A DNA stretch of 32,000 bases from Candidatus Saccharimonas aalborgensis (lineage in GTDB: Bacteria > Patescibacteriota > Saccharimonadia > Saccharimonadales > Saccharimonadaceae). Below the pieces are notes generated by a model, which did no database searches, had not been told where the DNA came from, and saw only the letters and a program-made list of their open reading frames with translations. Shown here piece by piece: positions 4,598-30,983 of the stretch (the stretch's first letter is position 1; each line of letters starts with the position of its first letter). The stretch is taken from assembly GCF_000392435.1 (NCBI RefSeq), contig NC_021219.1:240001-272000 (forward strand), written 5' to 3'. Position numbers and translations under genes: made by a program.

Positions 4598-4606
4598 GGT
4601 AGGACT

Positions 4607-4675
4607 ATGAACCATTCTAACGGTTCCTCTACTCGCAAATGTTGGGACGGTCCCAACCGCTCGCGGAATAATTAA
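4607..4675 (+). CDS. candidate 22-codon leader peptide (MNHSNGSSTRKCWDGPNRSRNN)
   Basis: The ATG lies 9 nt after the CATAAT box, which is the same leaderless geometry seen at other genes here. The ORF contains a 7-bp hairpin (4641-4657) and ends just before the hairpin at 4676-4688. There is no other support. Confidence 0.25.
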   Translation: MNHSNGSSTRKCWDGPNRSRNN

Positions 4676-14363: not shown

Positions 14364-14371
14364 GGGTCTAC

Positions 14372-14377
14372 ATTGTA
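14372..14377 (-). promoter_or_regulatory. -10 box (TACAAT) 8 nt upstream of the uvrA ATG, leaderless geometry
   Basis: The minus strand reads TACAAT gtagaccc ATG with no Shine-Dalgarno. Confidence 0.4.
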
Positions 14378-14495
14378 CAGTAGTATGTCATTTTTTTCCA
14401 GACCTTAGGCGCTATCCGTAGTGTAGATAATGCTTATAGTTGCATTATTTTGACATATTTGCTACATTGTTTTTAATTAGAAGTTGTGAAATCCT

Positions 14496-14774
14496 ATGAA
14501 CAAACGTATTCTCCTACTCATTGCTGCCGCCATCGCCCTGATCGTCCTGACACAGGGTCCGGTCGCCGACGCCCTCCTTACCTTTATTGTCACCGGTATC
14601 GTACCGGGAACAGGCGTCGCACTGCCATTTTGGGCTATTGTGACGATGAGCACGATGCTCTCTTTGATAGCTGTCGTGATTCTCGTCGATGACATCGCAC
14701 TCGATCGTCAGAAGTCAAAAGCATCCTCAAAACAGGCTACAAAAATGCCTCGTCGACGCTATAGCCATATTTAA
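14496..14774 (+). CDS. small hypothetical membrane protein (2-3 TM) with a basic tail
   Basis: Hydrophobic segments LLLIAAAIALIVL, IVTGIVPGTGVALPFWAIV and LSLIAVVILV, then a Lys/Arg/Ser-rich tail. Candidate promoter TTGCAT-17-TACATT upstream. Confidence 0.6.
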   Translation: MNKRILLLIAAAIALIVLTQGPVADALLTFIVTGIVPGTGVALPFWAIVTMSTMLSLIAVVILVDDIALDRQKSKASSKQATKMPRRRYSHI

Positions 14775-16186
14775 TCTTCGACTGGAATAATCGATTCGGC
14801 CCAAAGTTGCAACTCCTGCAGAATAAACTGACGAGATTCGTCGACTGATTTTGCAAGTCGATGATACGCAGTCATAAACTGTGGCAGTTGTGCACGGAGA
14901 CGATTTGCTCGCCACTGTTCCCAATCGTTTGTCTCTGATTCACTGAGGGTGCGCGGATAGTTTCGCGCCTTGTAGTGCAACAGAAGCGGCGTCAACCTCT
15001 CATCATTAAAATCAGGGTGGAAATCAGCAAGTTCTGATTCGGCTGCATTTCGCACCGCCTCGACACGCAGACGGTCATGATCACCGAGAAAGCTATCATA
15101 AAGCTGGCCTTCGGGGTCGGGGCAAGCTTTATAGGCCGGTTTGCTCTCATAAAGTGAACGAATATTCTCAGCAAATTCCGGATGAGCAAGCAATAGTTTT
15201 TTGTGACGCTCTATCGTTTGGGCATCGAGTTCAATTTTTTTCCATCCGTCTCCCTGTTCGAGCACTCCAAGCGGCGCAACCGCAGGAGCGCGATTATACT
15301 GAAGTTCCTTAACAGGCAGTGCCACAAACTCTGGCTTTTGACGCTCCTCCCAGGAAGCAAAAAAGGCAGTGGTCCGCTGCTTGCCAGTCATGGTCATAAA
15401 CGGTGTAGGATCGTGACGCAAATCATAGACCACTACATTGCCATTTGTGCCCGACGTCAAAGGAAAGGCCACCGTTGTCTTAGCATACGCCTTGTCATAG
15501 CGCCCGCTGGTATAGACAAATGGTTTTTTGTCGTCGAGATTGATGAGTTGTTGCACCGCCCGCTTATCGCGCATCTTTAAGAGATAGTCAAATAATTGTG
15601 GTTGGCTCGTCTTTATCAGCCGAGTAATGTCGATGAGAGCTACAACATCTGCCAAAGCATCGTGTGCGTTCTCGTGCACAATGTTATTCGCTTTTGTGAG
15701 TAGCTCCAGACGATTACTTGGCTCGCCCTTGTCGTCAGTTGGCCAAATGACACCCTCGGACCTCAGTGCGCGAGTCATACGCACCACATCGAGCATGTCC
15801 CAGCGGCTTCTGCCGTCCTGCCAACTCCAGCTATACGGGTCATGAAAGTTACGCCAGAGGAGATGGCGAATGAATTCATCGTCAAATCGAATGTTGTTGA
15901 AGCCAACCATGATCGTGTCAGGAGTCGCAATCTCCTCTGAAAACAGATTTGCAAACGCCGCCTCGCTATAGCCGTCACTGACGGTCTGCTGCGGTGTGAT
16001 TCCCGTCACCATCAGCGCATCAGGACTCGGCAGGGTATCGTCACACAGCGTCACCAAGATATTGTAGGGTTCCCCGATGAGATTGAGATTAAGATCGGTT
16101 CGCTGCCCAGCAAACTGCATGATGCGGTCCTCACGCGGGTTTAACCCGCTCGTTTCGAGATCATAAAAGAAAAATGTCTGCGCCAT
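14771..16186 (-). CDS. sbcB: exodeoxyribonuclease I
   Basis: 471 aa. DnaQ-like N-terminus FFFYDLETSGLNPREDRIMQFAGQRTD plus HDALADV. Length and layout match ExoI. Confidence 0.9.
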   Translation of the reverse strand: MAQTFFFYDLETSGLNPREDRIMQFAGQRTDLNLNLIGEPYNILVTLCDDTLPSPDALMVTGITPQQTVSDGYSEAAFANLFSEEIATPDTIMVGFNNIRFDDEFIRHLLWRNFHDPYSWSWQDGRSRWDMLDVVRMTRALRSEGVIWPTDDKGEPSNRLELLTKANNIVHENAHDALADVVALIDITRLIKTSQPQLFDYLLKMRDKRAVQQLINLDDKKPFVYTSGRYDKAYAKTTVAFPLTSGTNGNVVVYDLRHDPTPFMTMTGKQRTTAFFASWEERQKPEFVALPVKELQYNRAPAVAPLGVLEQGDGWKKIELDAQTIERHKKLLLAHPEFAENIRSLYESKPAYKACPDPEGQLYDSFLGDHDRLRVEAVRNAAESELADFHPDFNDERLTPLLLHYKARNYPRTLSESETNDWEQWRANRLRAQLPQFMTAYHRLAKSVDESRQFILQELQLWAESIIPVED

Positions 16187-16195
16187 ACTGCTACT

Positions 16196-16201
16196 AGTGT
16201 A
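16196..16201 (-). promoter_or_regulatory. -10 box (TACACT) 9 nt upstream of the sbcB ATG, leaderless geometry
   Basis: The minus strand reads TACACT agtagcagt ATG, directly after the terminator U-tract of the upstream RNA gene. Confidence 0.4.
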
Positions 16202-16203
16202 TC

Positions 16204-16224
16204 AAAAAACACCCCTATAGGGTG
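16204..16224 (-). terminator. intrinsic terminator of the large ncRNA
   Basis: Minus-strand RNA CACCC-UAUAG-GGGUG (16224-16210) followed by UUUUUU (16209-16204). Confidence 0.55.
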
Positions 16225-17037
16225 CTATGAAGTGATAGGCCAAGCCGTATCAGAGAGGTGAGAGGTAGTGGTGGGGGTGCGAGATGCACCCCCACCACAC
16301 CCCTGTCGGAAGACGGTGATCACCCGTGGCGATCCCTATCTTCCGCTATTCGGTTATTGCCCGCTTATACCGGTACGGGCCCCGGGTGCCGTTGTTCAGA
16401 CGGCGGCTGTTTGCCTCTGCGGCGAGGGGGACGCGAGTCCTTGAGTGGGGTCATCCGTCGCGGAGGAGCGCTTTTCTTTGCTCCTCGTTCCTCTTGGATG
16501 CGTGCACTCTACCCTACTTTCAGCCGAAGTGGTCGAACTACTTGGTGTTGACCACCCCGGTACATCGGGTGTTACAACCGGAAGATCGGATCATCCGGGG
16601 GTCCTCCTTTCGGGGGGCGGGTCGAGGCCAGCAGACTGGGATCGGTACAGGGGTACCGATCTAGCCGAAGCCTGCGGTCGCGGAGCTAGGCTCCTTGACC
16701 ACCGGCATTCGCCAACCCCATCGCTGGGTATTGGTGCGCGGCGTCGGGTGCGCGAGGCGGTCGCCGACCTGGAACATCCCGGTCAGGAGGCTGAATCCAA
16801 TCATCCAAAGCATGAGAGGAGAAATCTCACCTCCTTTCTTTTGTAAAGTGGCTAGTATCTCTTCTCTGTGGGGCCCGAAGTGCCCCAGTTGCTCAGGGGT
16901 GATGGTAGAACCCGGGAGCTACCAAGCGACATCGGATTTCACCGATCTCGCCTCGTAGCTCCCGAGTACAATACAGAACAATTTCTCTGATACGACTTGG
17001 TAAATGGCGTCTGCACGAGGGGTTTCCTCACAGAACA
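16204..17037 (-). ncRNA. unclassified large (~0.83 kb) GC-rich structured RNA
   Basis: It has its own perfect promoter and a terminator. No minus-strand ORF of 60 aa or more. A 17-bp helix pairs the ends (17000-16984 with 16256-16240), and its single non-Watson-Crick pair is G-U only on the minus-strand transcript. There are many perfect 7-13 bp internal hairpins. G+C is visibly above the flanks. Confidence 0.7.
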
Positions 17038-17043
17038 TGAATC

Positions 17044-17072
17044 ATTATAGCACTTAGTTGAATAAATGTCAA
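17044..17072 (-). promoter_or_regulatory. perfect consensus sigma70 promoter driving the large ncRNA
   Basis: Minus strand: TTGACA (17072-17067), exactly 17 nt of spacer, TATAAT (17049-17044). Predicted TSS near 17037. Confidence 0.8.
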
Positions 17073-17097
17073 TATGTTTTTGTTTTATTTTGTAAGA

Positions 17098-18390
17098 TTA
17101 CTGCTCTACCAGGGTAAACTGAGGCGAATCGCCAATCTGAATCATGCTGTCGCCTCTCGCACCCATACGCGCCAATTCGTGGCCGATACCAAGTCGTTTC
17201 ATGATATCACGGAGACGGTTGAGACTCTCGAATTGATCGTAATTGGTGCGGATAGCAAATTTTTCGATCTTTTCGCCGGTTACCCTATAAACACTGTTCT
17301 CGTCGTCATATTCCACTTTCCAGCGTGCAGACGCTGCGTGATCTGGGAGACTAATGACAACAGGTTGTTCAGGCTGATTCTCTTTTATTGGTTCATCGCT
17401 CTCACGGACTTGCTGGACTTTGACACGAAGTGCCCGTAAAACCTCAGTAATACCCTGGTGGGACTGAGAGGAAATCACAAAAATATCTGTCGAAGGAGAG
17501 ACCACCGTGCAGAGCGTATCTCGTTGCATGGCAATCATTTCATCGTCCAGACCCTCGCACTTTGTCAGGGCTATTACCTCAGGTCGGTTTACAAGTTCCG
17601 GACTATAACGCTCCAGTTCGTTTCGAATTGTTGTATAGGCGGCTGCCACGTCATCACTGTAGGCATCGATGAGATGCAGCAATACCGCCGTCCGCTCAAC
17701 ATGACGCAGGAACGCATCGCCGAGACCTTTTCCTTCGCTTGCGCCCTCGATCAAGCCAGGGATATCTGCGATCAGAATGCTTGTACCATCACTATCTGCC
17801 ACACCGAGATGGGGGGTCAAGGTCGTAAATGGGTAGTCGGCGATCTCAGGACGGGCATTGCTGACAACAGAGAGAAACGTCGATTTTCCTGCGTTTGGAA
17901 AGCCGACGAGGCCAACGTCTGCGAGTAGTTTTAGTTCAAGCTCAGCCACAAAACCTTCGCCCGGCTCACCAAGTTCAGCCATACGGGGAGTTTGGCGAGT
18001 CGATGATTTGAAGTGCGCGTTGCCAAAGCCACCCCCACCACCCTTAGCAATAATTGCCTCTTGGCCTGGATACGTCAGATCGGCGATTTCCACCCCCTCG
18101 CGCTTGACGAGCGTACCGACAGGCACCTTGACCAACAGATCAGTCCCCCATCGACCGGCCATTTTTTTCTTGCTACCATTGACGCCGTTTTCGGCCTTTA
18201 GCTCTGGCTTATAGCGAAAGTTAAGCAGGGTATTGAGCTGCTCTGTGGCAACAAAAACCACGTTACCACCTCGTCCCCCATCACCGCCATCTGGACCGCC
18301 CTTGTCAACATAAATCTCATGCCGAAAACTGACGGCACCATCGCCGCCTTTGCCTGCCTGTATTGTCACTGTTGCTGTATCGACAAACAT
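17098..18390 (-). CDS. obg: GTPase Obg/CgtA
   Basis: Gly-rich Obg fold (GKGGDGAVSFRHEIYVDKGGPDGGDGGRGG), G1 motif GFPNAGKST, C-terminal OCT-like domain. Confidence 0.97.
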   Translation of the reverse strand: MFVDTATVTIQAGKGGDGAVSFRHEIYVDKGGPDGGDGGRGGNVVFVATEQLNTLLNFRYKPELKAENGVNGSKKKMAGRWGTDLLVKVPVGTLVKREGVEIADLTYPGQEAIIAKGGGGGFGNAHFKSSTRQTPRMAELGEPGEGFVAELELKLLADVGLVGFPNAGKSTFLSVVSNARPEIADYPFTTLTPHLGVADSDGTSILIADIPGLIEGASEGKGLGDAFLRHVERTAVLLHLIDAYSDDVAAAYTTIRNELERYSPELVNRPEVIALTKCEGLDDEMIAMQRDTLCTVVSPSTDIFVISSQSHQGITEVLRALRVKVQQVRESDEPIKENQPEQPVVISLPDHAASARWKVEYDDENSVYRVTGEKIEKFAIRTNYDQFESLNRLRDIMKRLGIGHELARMGARGDSMIQIGDSPQFTLVEQ

Positions 18391-18400
18391 ATCTGTTACC

Positions 18401-18406
18401 AGTATA
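18401..18406 (-). promoter_or_regulatory. -10 box (TATACT) 10 nt upstream of the obg ATG
   Basis: The minus strand reads TATACT ggtaacagat ATG with no Shine-Dalgarno. Confidence 0.45.
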
Positions 18407-18410
18407 GCAA

Positions 18411-19648: not shown

Positions 19649-19761
19649 TCGTTGATTACGAATAACGATTCTCCTGTGAAACCATTGCTGGAATCACGTC
19701 TACCCCACTCTGTCTTTCTCCTCTCGCAAGGGAGGACTGGCGCGCGCGTGTCGACCGATGT

Positions 19762-19773
19762 TATCAATTGATA
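19762..19773. promoter_or_regulatory. perfect 12-bp palindrome TATCAATTGATA in the hydrolase leader, a possible operator
   Basis: The sequence equals its own reverse complement. It lies about 90-100 nt downstream of the predicted TSS. Confidence 0.3.
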
Positions 19774-19869
19774 TTAGTAAAATCTTTGCTTATTTCGGCG
19801 GCCGTTCGACATTTAAAGGTAAGCAGTACCGTGTTATACATCCGTACACTGGACGATACGTGCTCCACC

Positions 19870-19899
19870 ATTGTAGCAAGCCTGAGCATGATATGTCAA
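19870..19899 (-). promoter_or_regulatory. near-consensus sigma70 promoter for the LysM-CHAP hydrolase
   Basis: Minus strand: TTGACA (19899-19894), 18-nt spacer, TACAAT (19875-19870). This implies a ~215-nt 5' leader. Confidence 0.7.
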
Positions 19900-29844: not shown

Positions 29845-30225
29845 TTATCCTAGCCGGTTAAGCCGAGCTACACCAAGATTGGCACCGATAGTTCGCACAT
29901 AGGTTGCGTGAGGTGCTACACCGATGGTCTCTGGCCTACGAGGAGCCGTTTGGTGAAGCGGTGCCGTAGCGGCTACGAGACGCCCGGCAGCCGAACCAAC
30001 TGTTCCGGTCAGGCGTGGTGCACCCTCGATACGTCCCTCATCAATATCTCTAGGATCAACAACACGCTCATGCGCAGCAGCGGCGCGCAGAGCTAGCTCA
30101 GTCAAGACCCCTACAGGAGGGAATTCAGCAGTTCGTGAGTCAGGGGGTTGGTCATGAGAAAATGGAGCCGTCCCGTCTGGAAAGGCTTCGTCTCTTGGTG
30201 TATACGGTGTCATTACATCTGTCAT
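29845..30225 (-). CDS. hypothetical Ala/Pro/Arg/Gly-rich, probably disordered protein (126 aa)
   Basis: The ORF exactly fills the gap. Its ATG overlaps the tatD stop codon (ATGA). The locally elevated G+C and low-complexity composition keep confidence modest. Confidence 0.45.
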   Translation of the reverse strand: MTDVMTPYTPRDEAFPDGTAPFSHDQPPDSRTAEFPPVGVLTELALRAAAAHERVVDPRDIDEGRIEGAPRLTGTVGSAAGRLVAATAPLHQTAPRRPETIGVAPHATYVRTIGANLGVARLNRLG

Positions 30226-30983
30226 GTCATTTTCCCAAACACTCTCTCGGCGTTGTCAGTAGTTGCCTGCTCGACATCCTCGACGCGTACTCCTTTGAGG
30301 GCGGCTTGGTGTCTAGCAACCAGACCAACATACGCTGGTAAGTTCATTTTACCACGGAAAGGCTTTGGTGTCAAGAACGGAGCATCTGTCTCAAGGACTA
30401 TTTTTTCGAGCGGCACCTCAGTATAGAGACGCTGTTGACTCTCTTCCTTTGTAAACGTACTGATGCCATTTATACCGACAAGCAGTCCCCGTTTTAGCCC
30501 TTGCTCAAGGTTGTGCTGCGTATCAGTAAAACTGTGCATAATACCTCTGATGCCGCTAAAGGAATCAAAAATAGGCCAGAAGTCATCGTAGGCATCTCGC
30601 ACATGAAAACTGACTGGCAAGTTAAACTCCTGTGCTAAGGCCAATTGATCATGCAGTAGCTGTCGCTGCACGTCACGCGGGCTGTGTTCATAAAAATAAT
30701 CAAGGCCGATCTCTCCAATAGCGACAATTTTTTTATGACCCTCTTCAAGAAGCTGGCGAATACCGGCAACGTCCTCATCTTTACCATCGTGAGGATGAAT
30801 CCCGACAGCCGCATAACAGCCCTCATGTGTCTCGGCAAACGCGACTGCTTCCCGAGAACTACGCACGGTTGTCCCAATACAAAGCATCACAACACCAGCA
30901 TCACGTGATTGCCGATAAACATCCTCTCTATTCTCTGGGTAGAACTCACTGTCGTGAATATGACAATGGGTATCGATCACCAT
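30222..30983 (-). CDS. tatD: TatD-family metal-dependent hydrolase/DNase
   Basis: VIDTHCHI motif and conserved His/Asp/Glu pattern (GEIGLDY, SFHVRDA, MHSF, LETDAPF). Confidence 0.9.
   Translation of the reverse strand: MVIDTHCHIHDSEFYPENREDVYRQSRDAGVVMLCIGTTVRSSREAVAFAETHEGCYAAVGIHPHDGKDEDVAGIRQLLEEGHKKIVAIGEIGLDYFYEHSPRDVQRQLLHDQLALAQEFNLPVSFHVRDAYDDFWPIFDSFSGIRGIMHSFTDTQHNLEQGLKRGLLVGINGISTFTKEESQQRLYTEVPLEKIVLETDAPFLTPKPFRGKMNLPAYVGLVARHQAALKGVRVEDVEQATTDNAERVFGKMT

Follow-up and report, generated by a model that had tools for sequence, protein, structure and literature searches.

A predicted 0.83-kb structured RNA containing putative mini-ORFs and an allelic core in the obg–sbcB spacer of Candidatus Saccharimonas aalborgensis

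The 32-kb stretch of Candidatus Saccharimonas aalborgensis analyzed here (NC_021219.1, positions 240,001 to 272,000; below, the window) carries an insert of about 0.9 kb between two housekeeping genes, obg and sbcB, and we have studied the element that occupies the minus strand of this spacer, a predicted unit of about 0.83 kb. Our preferred reading, to which we assign a probability of roughly 45%, is that of an independently transcribed, very stable structured RNA that would act at two levels, either as a dual-function RNA or as an mRNA of small open reading frames (ORFs) set in a functional RNA scaffold. The initial annotation of this DNA had proposed an ORF-free giant non-coding RNA, and we replace this label with that of a structured RNA that contains mini-ORFs and has an allelic core. 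Judged by its sequence, the element appears to be an unclassified, narrowly distributed transcription unit.

The limits of the insert are as initially annotated, with the UAA stop codon of obg at 17098 and the AUG start codon of sbcB at 16186, and between them the unit has, as had been proposed, both a promoter and a terminator of its own on the minus strand. The promoter matches the sigma-70 consensus in 12 of 12 positions with a 17-nt spacer (coordinates of all features are given in Table 1) and is the sole 12/12 site of the window on both strands; transcription is predicted to start at about 17037. It is identical in two of the variant loci described below, L112 and L162, although the 3' end of obg differs there. 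At the other end, a hairpin (16226–16208) is followed by six U residues. The increased G+C content was observed again, with 43 G/C counted in 16381–16440, and amounts to 0.60–0.62 in the core vs about 0.48–0.52 in the flanks and 0.49 in the genome. Apart from a site at 19899 (see below), two others in the window match the promoter consensus in 11 of 12 positions, one at 30374 on the minus strand, inside or beside ORF 30222–30983, and one at 14450 on the plus strand, upstream of a 92-amino-acid (aa) hydrophobic ORF (14496–14774) that itself overlaps the 3' end of sbcB.

The two ends of the predicted RNA are joined by the helix noticed initially, which comprises 17 bp, 16 of them Watson–Crick and one G·U, compared to 13 bp for the longest comparable helix in 100 shuffles. 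In the model, transcript nucleotides 37–53 pair with the 17 nt directly upstream of the terminator. The G·U pair becomes a C–A mismatch on the plus strand, and this feature supports the minus strand, as had been argued. The five internal helices listed at the outset (13, 9, 10, 7, and 7 bp) are all perfect, and a hairpin at the very 5' end may act as a 5' stabilizer. The minimum free energy (MFE) of the minus-strand fold is –395 kcal/mol with z = –11.9, while the plus strand yields z = –7.1.

Base pairs were counted in an RNAalifold consensus of six distinct sequences, a small sample and the same one from which the structure was derived. In this consensus 97.7% of cells are paired, twelve pairs use a G·U valid on the minus strand only, and four pairs are altered on both sides (in the long hairpin P2, in a hairpin inside the first mini-ORF, ORF1, and in the region of the second Shine–Dalgarno sequence, SD2), compared to 0–1 in slid controls. 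Among the haplotypes, P2 shows one compensatory CG to UA change, as well as CG to UG and GC to GU changes, to which L162 adds another G–C to G–U change. In L112, a cluster of changes at 16540–16515 re-forms a hairpin with a different bulge (manual reading). The minus strand and several local helices are backed by the G·U-only pairs and by the four covarying pairs, and, given the small sample and the derivation of the structure from the same sequences, we regard this modeled covariation as supportive, not conclusive.

Variants of the element were reached in several ways: L087–L089 via P0002, the single sister cluster (76% identity) of P0001, which is the 50-aa ORF called by the Joint Genome Institute (JGI) inside the element; L112 via a metagenome scan for the inverted-repeat arms; and L162 via an exact-Obg look-up. 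The flanking genes are about 93–95% identical among the window, L089, and L112, the three lineages with sbcB sequence (profile range 91–98%). Conservation in relatives, which the initial annotation had made a test of its proposal, is observed at the nucleotide level in the 5' end and the 3' domain and exceeds that of the neighboring genes: sbcB differs by 5–7% among the three lineages whose 3' domain is 97–100% identical, with about 5 differences per 320 nt in the 3' domain vs about 22 per 360 nt in sbcB (profile estimate; Fisher p = 0.003). Near 16366 the 3' domain has a 2-nt indel, which is incompatible with coding on either of its strands; the constraint on this domain is hence one at the RNA (or DNA) level. 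On this comparison, the 5' ~100 nt and the 3' ~300 nt appear to be under stronger purifying selection than sbcB.

On the contrary, the middle of the element is mosaic. One patch of L082 is B-type, L112 is composed of both A and B segments, and in L162 the Obg protein and the flank are identical to those of the window, yet the middle is B-type; the middle thus behaves like an allelic cassette that recombines, flanked by ends under strong constraint. In L087–L089, a gene encoding an IS30-like transposase (HTH_38, weak rve) replaces everything upstream of approximately +9, promoter included. As the same allele class retains the native promoter in L112 and L162, this insertion is secondary.

The initial statement that the minus strand contains no ORF of at least 60 aa is literally true, but a 50-aa ORF (ORF1) and an 18-aa one (ORF2) behave like coding sequences, and the notion of a purely ORF-free non-coding RNA did not hold, as both have Shine–Dalgarno (SD) sequences, are intact in all recovered haplotypes, and show coding signatures. 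ORF1 is intact in six distinct alleles, its sole internal indel being 3 nt long; its predicted peptide contains the stretch MLWMIGFSLLTGMFQVGDR and ends with the invariant MPVVKEPSSATAGFG. Between the window and L089, the ratio of synonymous to non-synonymous codons is 9:12 in the ORF1 frame, compared to 1:19 and 3:14 for the remaining two sense frames (Fisher p = 0.008; p = 0.006 in a second test of the same synonymous excess). Codons 1–34 have 3 synonymous and 12 non-synonymous changes, and codons 35–50, 6 and 0, respectively. The G+C content at the third codon positions (GC3) of ORF1 is 0.82 vs 0.58 and 0.56 at the first and second positions (GC1 and GC2), and 0.46–0.53 in ordinary genes of the window; weak 3-periodicity of G+C is seen across the element and is strongest over ORF1.

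ORF2 starts 8 nt after the invariant GAAAGGAGGA. In the B alleles, an 8-nt insertion yields a new in-frame AUG located 7 nt past the same SD2, so that the SD2–AUG spacing stays at 7–8 nt, and the next three differences are consecutive synonymous third-position changes. SD1, upstream of ORF1, is predicted to pair with the upstream GCCACUUU in a 19-pair irregular hairpin (helix 7). SDs of the GAAAGGAG type serve a minority of real genes in this genome, and many others look leaderless. No homologs of ORF1 were found outside the lineage: a word-indexed search returned the one sister cluster only, and a profile search of 1.84 billion representatives, only ORF1 itself and three repetitive low-complexity matches. 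Neither peptide matched a family in NCBIfam or Pfam. We consider coding constraint on ORF1 likely on sequence grounds, with the signal resting on few, non-independent events.

Proteins identical to SbcB and Obg of the window occur in two complete Saccharibacteria genomes (CP065015.1, CP065017.1), one UBA metagenome-assembled genome, and several JGI, Logan, and European Nucleotide Archive contigs, and there the element is 99.3–100% identical to that of the window. Its recurrence next to obg or sbcB in relatives, which was to be checked according to the initial annotation, was not observed beyond the species complex. The obg–sbcB synteny is common among the 80 Saccharibacteria species whose loci were collected via their Obg protein, and nhmmer identified no homolog of the element next to obg in these species. 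By sequence, then, the element is to be seen as confined to one activated-sludge Saccharibacteria species complex and not as a widespread family.

In the closest sister species of this set (SbcB 71–74% identical) the spacer has just 41–50 nt, which carry the extended –10 promoter of sbcB. These short sister spacers, along with unrelated cargo elsewhere, mark the obg–sbcB spacer as a variable insertion hot spot, and the element is a lineage-specific insert or the survivor of repeated loss. The length of the spacer varies from 41 nt to 3.3 kb across species, and its cargo is unrelated between species, including pilin-like genes, a DAHP-synthase-like gene, a photolyase-like gene, a TerC-like membrane protein, and orphan ORFs (judged by sequence alone), in L003, L004, L008, L012, L016, L018, L051, L059, L064, L069–L071, L076, L078, and L079.

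The element remained unclassified, as initially stated, with RNase P, tmRNA, SRP RNA, 6S RNA, rRNA, group I/II introns, ribozymes, and riboswitches all unmatched. At Rfam gathering thresholds, cmscan of the whole window yielded only lysM-TM7 and MDR-NUDIX, both elsewhere, a result that places the DNA in Saccharibacteria (TM7); at E ≤ 10, region 16100–17150 produced only hairpin-level chance matches, the best one with 26.4 bits vs the 52.5-bit cut-off. The haplotype variants and the analogous elements described below had no Rfam match either, and ARAGORN found no tRNA or tmRNA in the window. The number of GGA triplets, considered for a CsrB-like GGA sponge, is about that expected from base composition (hand estimate).

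Several observations weigh against the two-level reading. When the element is taken as a whole, the ORF frame scores no better than the antisense frame with the same wobble position. Of the six synonymous changes in the C-terminal part of ORF1, four are at the same time G–C to G–U changes in helix 12, and therefore RNA constraint alone explains a part of the coding signal; according to a hand count, 6 of the 13 C positions of helix 12 able to become U lie in codon phase, and for all four helix 12 changes and two unpaired ones to be in phase p ~0.002. The coding signal comes from one species complex with heavy recombination, and the substitutions are few and non-independent. SD1 is located 13 nt from the AUG of ORF1, whose peptide lacks homologs. 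Recent recombination, and not selection, may account for part of the 100% identity of the ends. As for the proposed covariation check, local helices are kept and four pairs covary, but in the B alleles several of the long-range core helices that the MFE model of the single sequence contains are disrupted, and these should not be trusted. One natural haplotype, that with the IS30-like insertion, has lost the promoter, so that, for a short time at least, the unit can be dispensed with. Finally, promoter, terminator, structure, and translation are all predictions.

Some of these points are shared by the reading as a pure non-coding structured RNA, whose short ORFs would be incidental and whose coding signal would be a by-product of G–C to G–U helix drift and recombination. 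It agrees with the extreme structure and covariation, with the conservation of the 5' and 3' domains though they are non-coding, with the poor spacing and predicted sequestration of SD1, with the absence of peptide homologs and the mutually unrelated ORFs of 3–35 aa in the analogous elements, and with the equal score of the antisense frame. We still find it doubtful, as the ORFs are intact in six alleles where the region otherwise gathers indels of lengths not divisible by three, all six changes in codons 35–50 of ORF1 are both third-position and synonymous, the start codon of ORF2 is relocated in frame at optimal SD spacing, and GC3 of ORF1 stands far from its GC1 and GC2. Fold-back inhibition, known in type I toxin mRNAs of the hok/sok family, offers another reading, that of a type I toxin–antitoxin-like mRNA encoding a small, partly hydrophobic peptide, controlled by fold-back and SD sequestration and activated by processing. 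The predicted 17-bp 5'–3' pairing, the pairing of SD1 in helix 7, the hydrophobic start of ORF1 within a stable structured mRNA, the strongly hydrophobic 23-aa peptide of the L006 analog (MEYITVFLWVANLFVTYVLPLFG), and the variable hot-spot location with lineage-specific distribution are all hok-like. This identity is quite unlikely, however, since no plus-strand promoter-like site, and thus no antisense gene, was detected in 15900–17400 at a threshold of at least 9/12; the hydrophobic run of ORF1 has just ~14–17 residues (Kyte–Doolittle mean over 19 residues ~0.9, hand calculation), lies in the variable part, is less hydrophobic in the B alleles, and is not convincingly membrane-spanning; the transcript is 2–4 times longer than the known type I toxin mRNAs; and the element is single-copy in the metagenome collection and matches no toxin family in Pfam or NCBIfam.

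Horizontal acquisition had been named initially as the alternative to a functional RNA. Acquisition as such is compatible with a functional cassette, the site being an insertion hot spot, and is not opposed to function; what would be opposed is non-functional foreign DNA or a mobile relic (a miniature inverted-repeat transposable element, MITE, a decayed insertion sequence, IS, or a decayed GC-rich gene) lying behind a strong promoter by chance. The high G+C content and weak 3-periodicity, the absence from the closest sister species, the hot spot, the IS30-like transposase adjoining one haplotype, and the 17-nt inverted-repeat arms CCAAGYCGTATCAGAGA at 17000–16984 and 16240–16256 could be taken for traces of such an origin. 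We nevertheless consider a relic very unlikely. The conserved unit reaches ~40–70 nt beyond both arms, to the promoter, the 5' hairpin, and the terminator; unlike junk, its ends are more conserved than the neighboring genes; the IS30-like gene is secondary; the flanks (CCATTTA vs CCTATCA, manual reading) show no target-site duplication; and Pfam found nothing, including transposase remnants, in all ORFs of at least 40 aa and all six full frames. A pattern scan of 241 million metagenome records revealed a single locus with both arms, which is the same obg–sbcB site, the viral collection contained two single-arm chance matches only, no repeat is present within the window, and blastn in distant mode found no match to the element in phage and plasmid collections. 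A multicopy MITE or IS was rejected, as the viral and metagenome inverted-repeat scans gave no additional copies, and a decayed long GC-rich gene covering the whole region was set aside as unlikely, given 8–11 stops per frame and indels of lengths not divisible by three outside ORF1 and ORF2. That the region is a cis-acting leader or regulatory region of sbcB, or the 3' untranslated region of obg, is suggested by its co-orientation with both genes and its end 16 nt before the sbcB start, and is highly improbable in view of its own promoter and strong terminator, of the absence of the element from most relatives with obg–sbcB synteny, and of the leaderless-type extended –10 promoter that sbcB keeps, also in the element-free relatives with 41–50-nt spacers. 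The arrangement TGnTAnnnT-N6-9-ATG occurs both in relatives without the element and at other genes of the window. A leaderless appearance is common in window genes and relatives, with the TGnTAnnnT box 6–9 nt before the start codon and no SD, e.g., at 16196–16204 (sbcB), 18391–18410 (obg), and 14364–14380 (uvrA).

Table 1. Predicted features of the element, its surroundings, and the analogous loci (window coordinates unless a locus or record is named).
Feature	Position	Strand	Description
Promoter	17044–17072	–	–35 TTGACA 17072–17067; TGC extended –10 17052–17050; –10 TATAAT 17049–17044; predicted
Promoter and first ~100 nt	17060–16961	–	pairwise identity 97–100%
5'-terminal hairpin	17010–17034	–	UCUGUGAGG-AAACC-CCUCGUGCAGA; begins 2–3 nt after predicted 5' end; in MFE, centroid, and alifold structures
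Closing helix, 5' arm	16984–17000	–	CCAAGUCGUAUCAGAGA; invariant in all haplotypes; G·U valid on minus strand only
Long hairpin P2	16910–16969	–	24 pairs, GAAA-type apical loop; helix 4
Hypervariable recombining central cassette	16475–16960	–	identity 52–88%; indels of 16, 1, 2–6, and 8 nt, outside ORFs
SD1 (SD-like)	16827–16837	–	AAAGGAGGUGA, 11 nt complementary to canonical 16S 3' tail; 13 nt upstream of ORF1 AUG
ORF1	16661–16813	–	50 aa: MLWMIGFSLLTGMFQVGDRLAHPTPRTNTQRWGWRMPVVKEPSSATAGFG; putative; N-terminal two-thirds variable, C-terminal third invariant
Perfect 9-bp hairpin	16640–16661	–	GAUCGGUAC-CCCU-GUACCGAUC; directly after ORF1 stop; helix 13; stem invariant, loop variable
SD2	16602–16610	–	(G)AAAGGAGGA; invariant within most variable stretch
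ORF2	16538–16594	–	18 aa: MIRSSGCNTRCTGVVNTK; 21 aa in B-type alleles: MVCLIRSSGCNTRCTGVVNTK; putative
Conserved 3' structured domain	16257–16520	–	~7 hairpins, including perfect 13-bp GC hairpin 16298–16268 and 17-pair hairpin 16326–16288
Last ~300 nt	16520–16200	–	pairwise identity 97–100%
Closing helix, 3' arm	16240–16256	–	UCUCUGAUACGGCUUGG; 17/17 pairs in all sequences (helix 2)
Intrinsic terminator	16202–16226	–	8-bp stem, 3-nt loop, U6; predicted; invariant among haplotypes
sbcB extended –10 promoter	16196–16204	–	TGATACACT, 9 nt upstream of sbcB ATG; leaderless type; abuts element, outside it
IS30-like insertion	L087 41–1030; L088 20–1009; junction L089 ~55	– (L087, L088)	divergent to element; one haplotype, three independent samples
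Analogous element L006	5354–5905		CAZQJY010000004.1
Analogous element L011	5358–5925		DITV01000004.1
Analogous element L014	5345–5965		MKSN01000001.1
Analogous element L073	5379–6010		JBBRAC010000005.1

If the two-level reading is correct, the 5' hairpin, the closing helix, and the terminator would protect the transcript from exonucleases, and such protection, combined with the consensus promoter, would lead to a high steady-state level of the RNA; by analogy with rRNA precursors, the closing helix may also be an RNase III processing stem. With both SDs partly hidden in local helices of the model, peptide synthesis would be gated by RNA folding. The conserved 3' domain could serve as the RNA-level effector, via protein binding or base-pairing, while the variable N-terminal part of ORF1 suggests a strain-specific interaction (a signal, toxin/immunity, or contact with the bacterial host). 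Saccharibacteria live as obligate epibionts, and their genomes of ~1 Mb leave little room for spare DNA; thus a 0.9-kb non-housekeeping unit with the strongest promoter of the window probably pays for itself. A TM7x transcriptome preprint (doi 10.1101/2022.03.25.485537) states that Saccharibacteria have as yet no validated small or structured regulatory RNA, and our literature searches came across no account of this element. Should the element be a dual-function RNA whose peptide cassette is allelic, it would provide a concrete, testable handle on strain-specific signaling or antagonism in bacteria of the candidate phyla radiation, as well as a new case of protein-coding and RNA-structure constraint on the same nucleotides. 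If the element is just an orphan structured transcript, it calls for caution, as “ORF-free” intergenic RNAs found by G+C content and structure can hide translated mini-ORFs.

By any criterion we could test, the element appears to belong neither to the RNAIII-type RNAs nor to the type I toxin mRNAs, although it would work like the former and shares the predicted fold-back and SD masking of the latter. Dual-function bacterial RNAs include Staphylococcus aureus RNAIII/hld, Bacillus SR1/SR1P, and SgrS/SgrT. Similarly to the RNAIII type, the element is predicted to be an independent unit of several hundred nucleotides with many hairpins and long-range 5'–3' pairing, a short putative ORF embedded in structured RNA, and a conserved non-coding 3' domain. 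It differs in the absence of sequence or structure homology, in length (0.83 kb vs 514 nt of RNAIII), in having two ORFs, in the absence of linked quorum-sensing or regulator genes, and in its allelic, hypervariable center. In rRNA-type processing stalks, the 5' and 3' flanks of a stable RNA form RNase III stems, and the order of consensus-strength promoter, leader, 17-bp closing duplex around GC-rich structured RNA, and terminator resembles this arrangement, whereas the element has no rRNA, tRNA, or other stable-RNA homology.

The nonamer GAAAGGAGG is reportedly the STAB-SD mRNA stabilizer of Bacillus thuringiensis cryIIIA (Agaisse and Lereclus, 1996). It is present twice in the element RNA, at 16838–16830 and 16611–16603, the second copy being invariant despite hypervariable flanks. 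Unlike STAB-SD, this second copy is followed by an in-frame AUG at 7–8 nt and a conserved ORF, and hence is probably a true ribosome-binding site; the motif is also the SD of ordinary genes here, and a stabilizer role of the copies, by analogy, is only a possibility. GOLLD, ROOL, OLE, raiA, and HEARO are large ornate bacterial RNAs (Rfam; cryo-electron microscopy paper PMC12286853). Of the comparison with GOLLD, ROOL, and OLE made initially, the size class (0.6–0.8 kb) stands, as do the very high predicted structure and the GC-rich, ORF-poor intergenic signal, but nothing indicates kinship, with all Rfam covariance models negative even at E ≤ 10. The element also differs from these RNAs in its restriction to one species complex, in not being phage- or tRNA-associated, in consisting of many long perfect hairpins instead of intricate multi-junction conserved cores, and in its ORFs with coding signatures.

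Four ORF-poor obg–sbcB spacers of other Saccharibacteria species, those of L006, L011, L014, and L073, have a similar layout, with no sequence similarity to the window element or to one another. As each is unique and the five share no k-mers above chance, there is no cross-species alignment or covariance model. All four begin with a 5'-terminal hairpin and have a TTGACw-17-TAnAAT promoter right after obg. In each, the 5' arm of the closing helix begins 36–45 nt from the predicted 5' end and another long hairpin comes after it, while the 3' part is structured, contains a long GC hairpin, and is followed by a terminator; their fold z-scores are –6 to –13 (mononucleotide shuffles). The closing helix is uninterrupted in L014 (18 bp) and L073 (15 bp), at or above the shuffle maxima, and interrupted in L006 and L011, where alone it is not significant. 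SD–AUG modules are observed in L006, L011, and L014, with the first mini-ORF at +192 to +207 (+224 in the window) and its GC3 equal to 0.87 in L006, 0.79 in L011, and ~0.76 in a segment covering that of L014, while L073 has no convincing module. In L006, two near-identical ribosome-binding-site modules AAGGGGGUGUYGUCAUG are present, and the hydrophobic 23-aa peptide lies behind a good SD. The candidate L034 (6240–7030) was not counted, having no strong promoter on that strand.

Architecture and position suggest that the four analogs and the window element form a class, or else they could reflect convergence among strongly expressed hot-spot cassettes. A broader proposal, unlikely as we see it, would make the element the best-resolved member of an unrecognized class of large (0.55–0.85 kb), rapidly diverging, very strongly promoted RNAs in the obg–sbcB spacer of environmental Saccharibacteria, with a common build and an allelic peptide cassette that recombines between strains and mediates strain-specific interactions among epibionts or with host bacteria. 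The common build would comprise the 5' hairpin, the closing helix ~36–45 nt from the 5' end, the long second hairpin, one or two SD–mini-ORF modules from about +190 to +225, the GC-rich 3' domain, and the terminator, and the allelic cassette would be comparable to the regions that determine pherotype or specificity in peptide-signal or toxin/immunity loci.

A different, conserved RNA of ~125 nt is located within 4 kb of obg in 19 of the 80 Saccharibacteria loci, including Nanosynbacter and Nanosyncoccus (L023 5405–5545, L027 5348–5500, L037 2358–2515, L042 5387–5535, L052 5370–5505, L043 5545–5395 on the minus strand, and 13 more), and is absent from the window. It has its own TTGAC-17-TAnnAT promoter and a terminator whose stem covaries, and had no Rfam match at gathering thresholds or at E ≤ 10. 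Its closing helix is GCUGAU/AUCAGC, and its other parts are a hairpin of 16 pairs, a single-stranded A-rich stretch of ~45 nt, and another hairpin. Both this RNA (e.g., L027 5353–5362) and the window element contain the 8-mer CUGAUACG and the complementary CGUAUCAG in their closing helices, with the arms swapped; a relation between them was rejected, as the match is probably a coincidence (rough chance ~0.006, post hoc). Downstream of sbcB, L056 (7183–7752) and L061 (6720–7164) contain ORF-poor, AT-rich, strongly structured regions (z approximately –9 to –12) with a common block …UAUYGGUGCCKGGRHUAUYCCUAGGACUA…, which may be another RNA motif or a small opposite-strand gene.

Of the two Rfam families identified in the window, the lysM-TM7 RNA (19671–19824, minus strand, 92 bits) is located upstream of the LysM/CHAP gene 19648–18464 and has an 11/12 promoter at 19899; L003, L006, L011, L014, and L112 have this RNA upstream of that gene as well. 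The MDR-NUDIX RNA is at 4604–4666 on the plus strand (69.5 bits).

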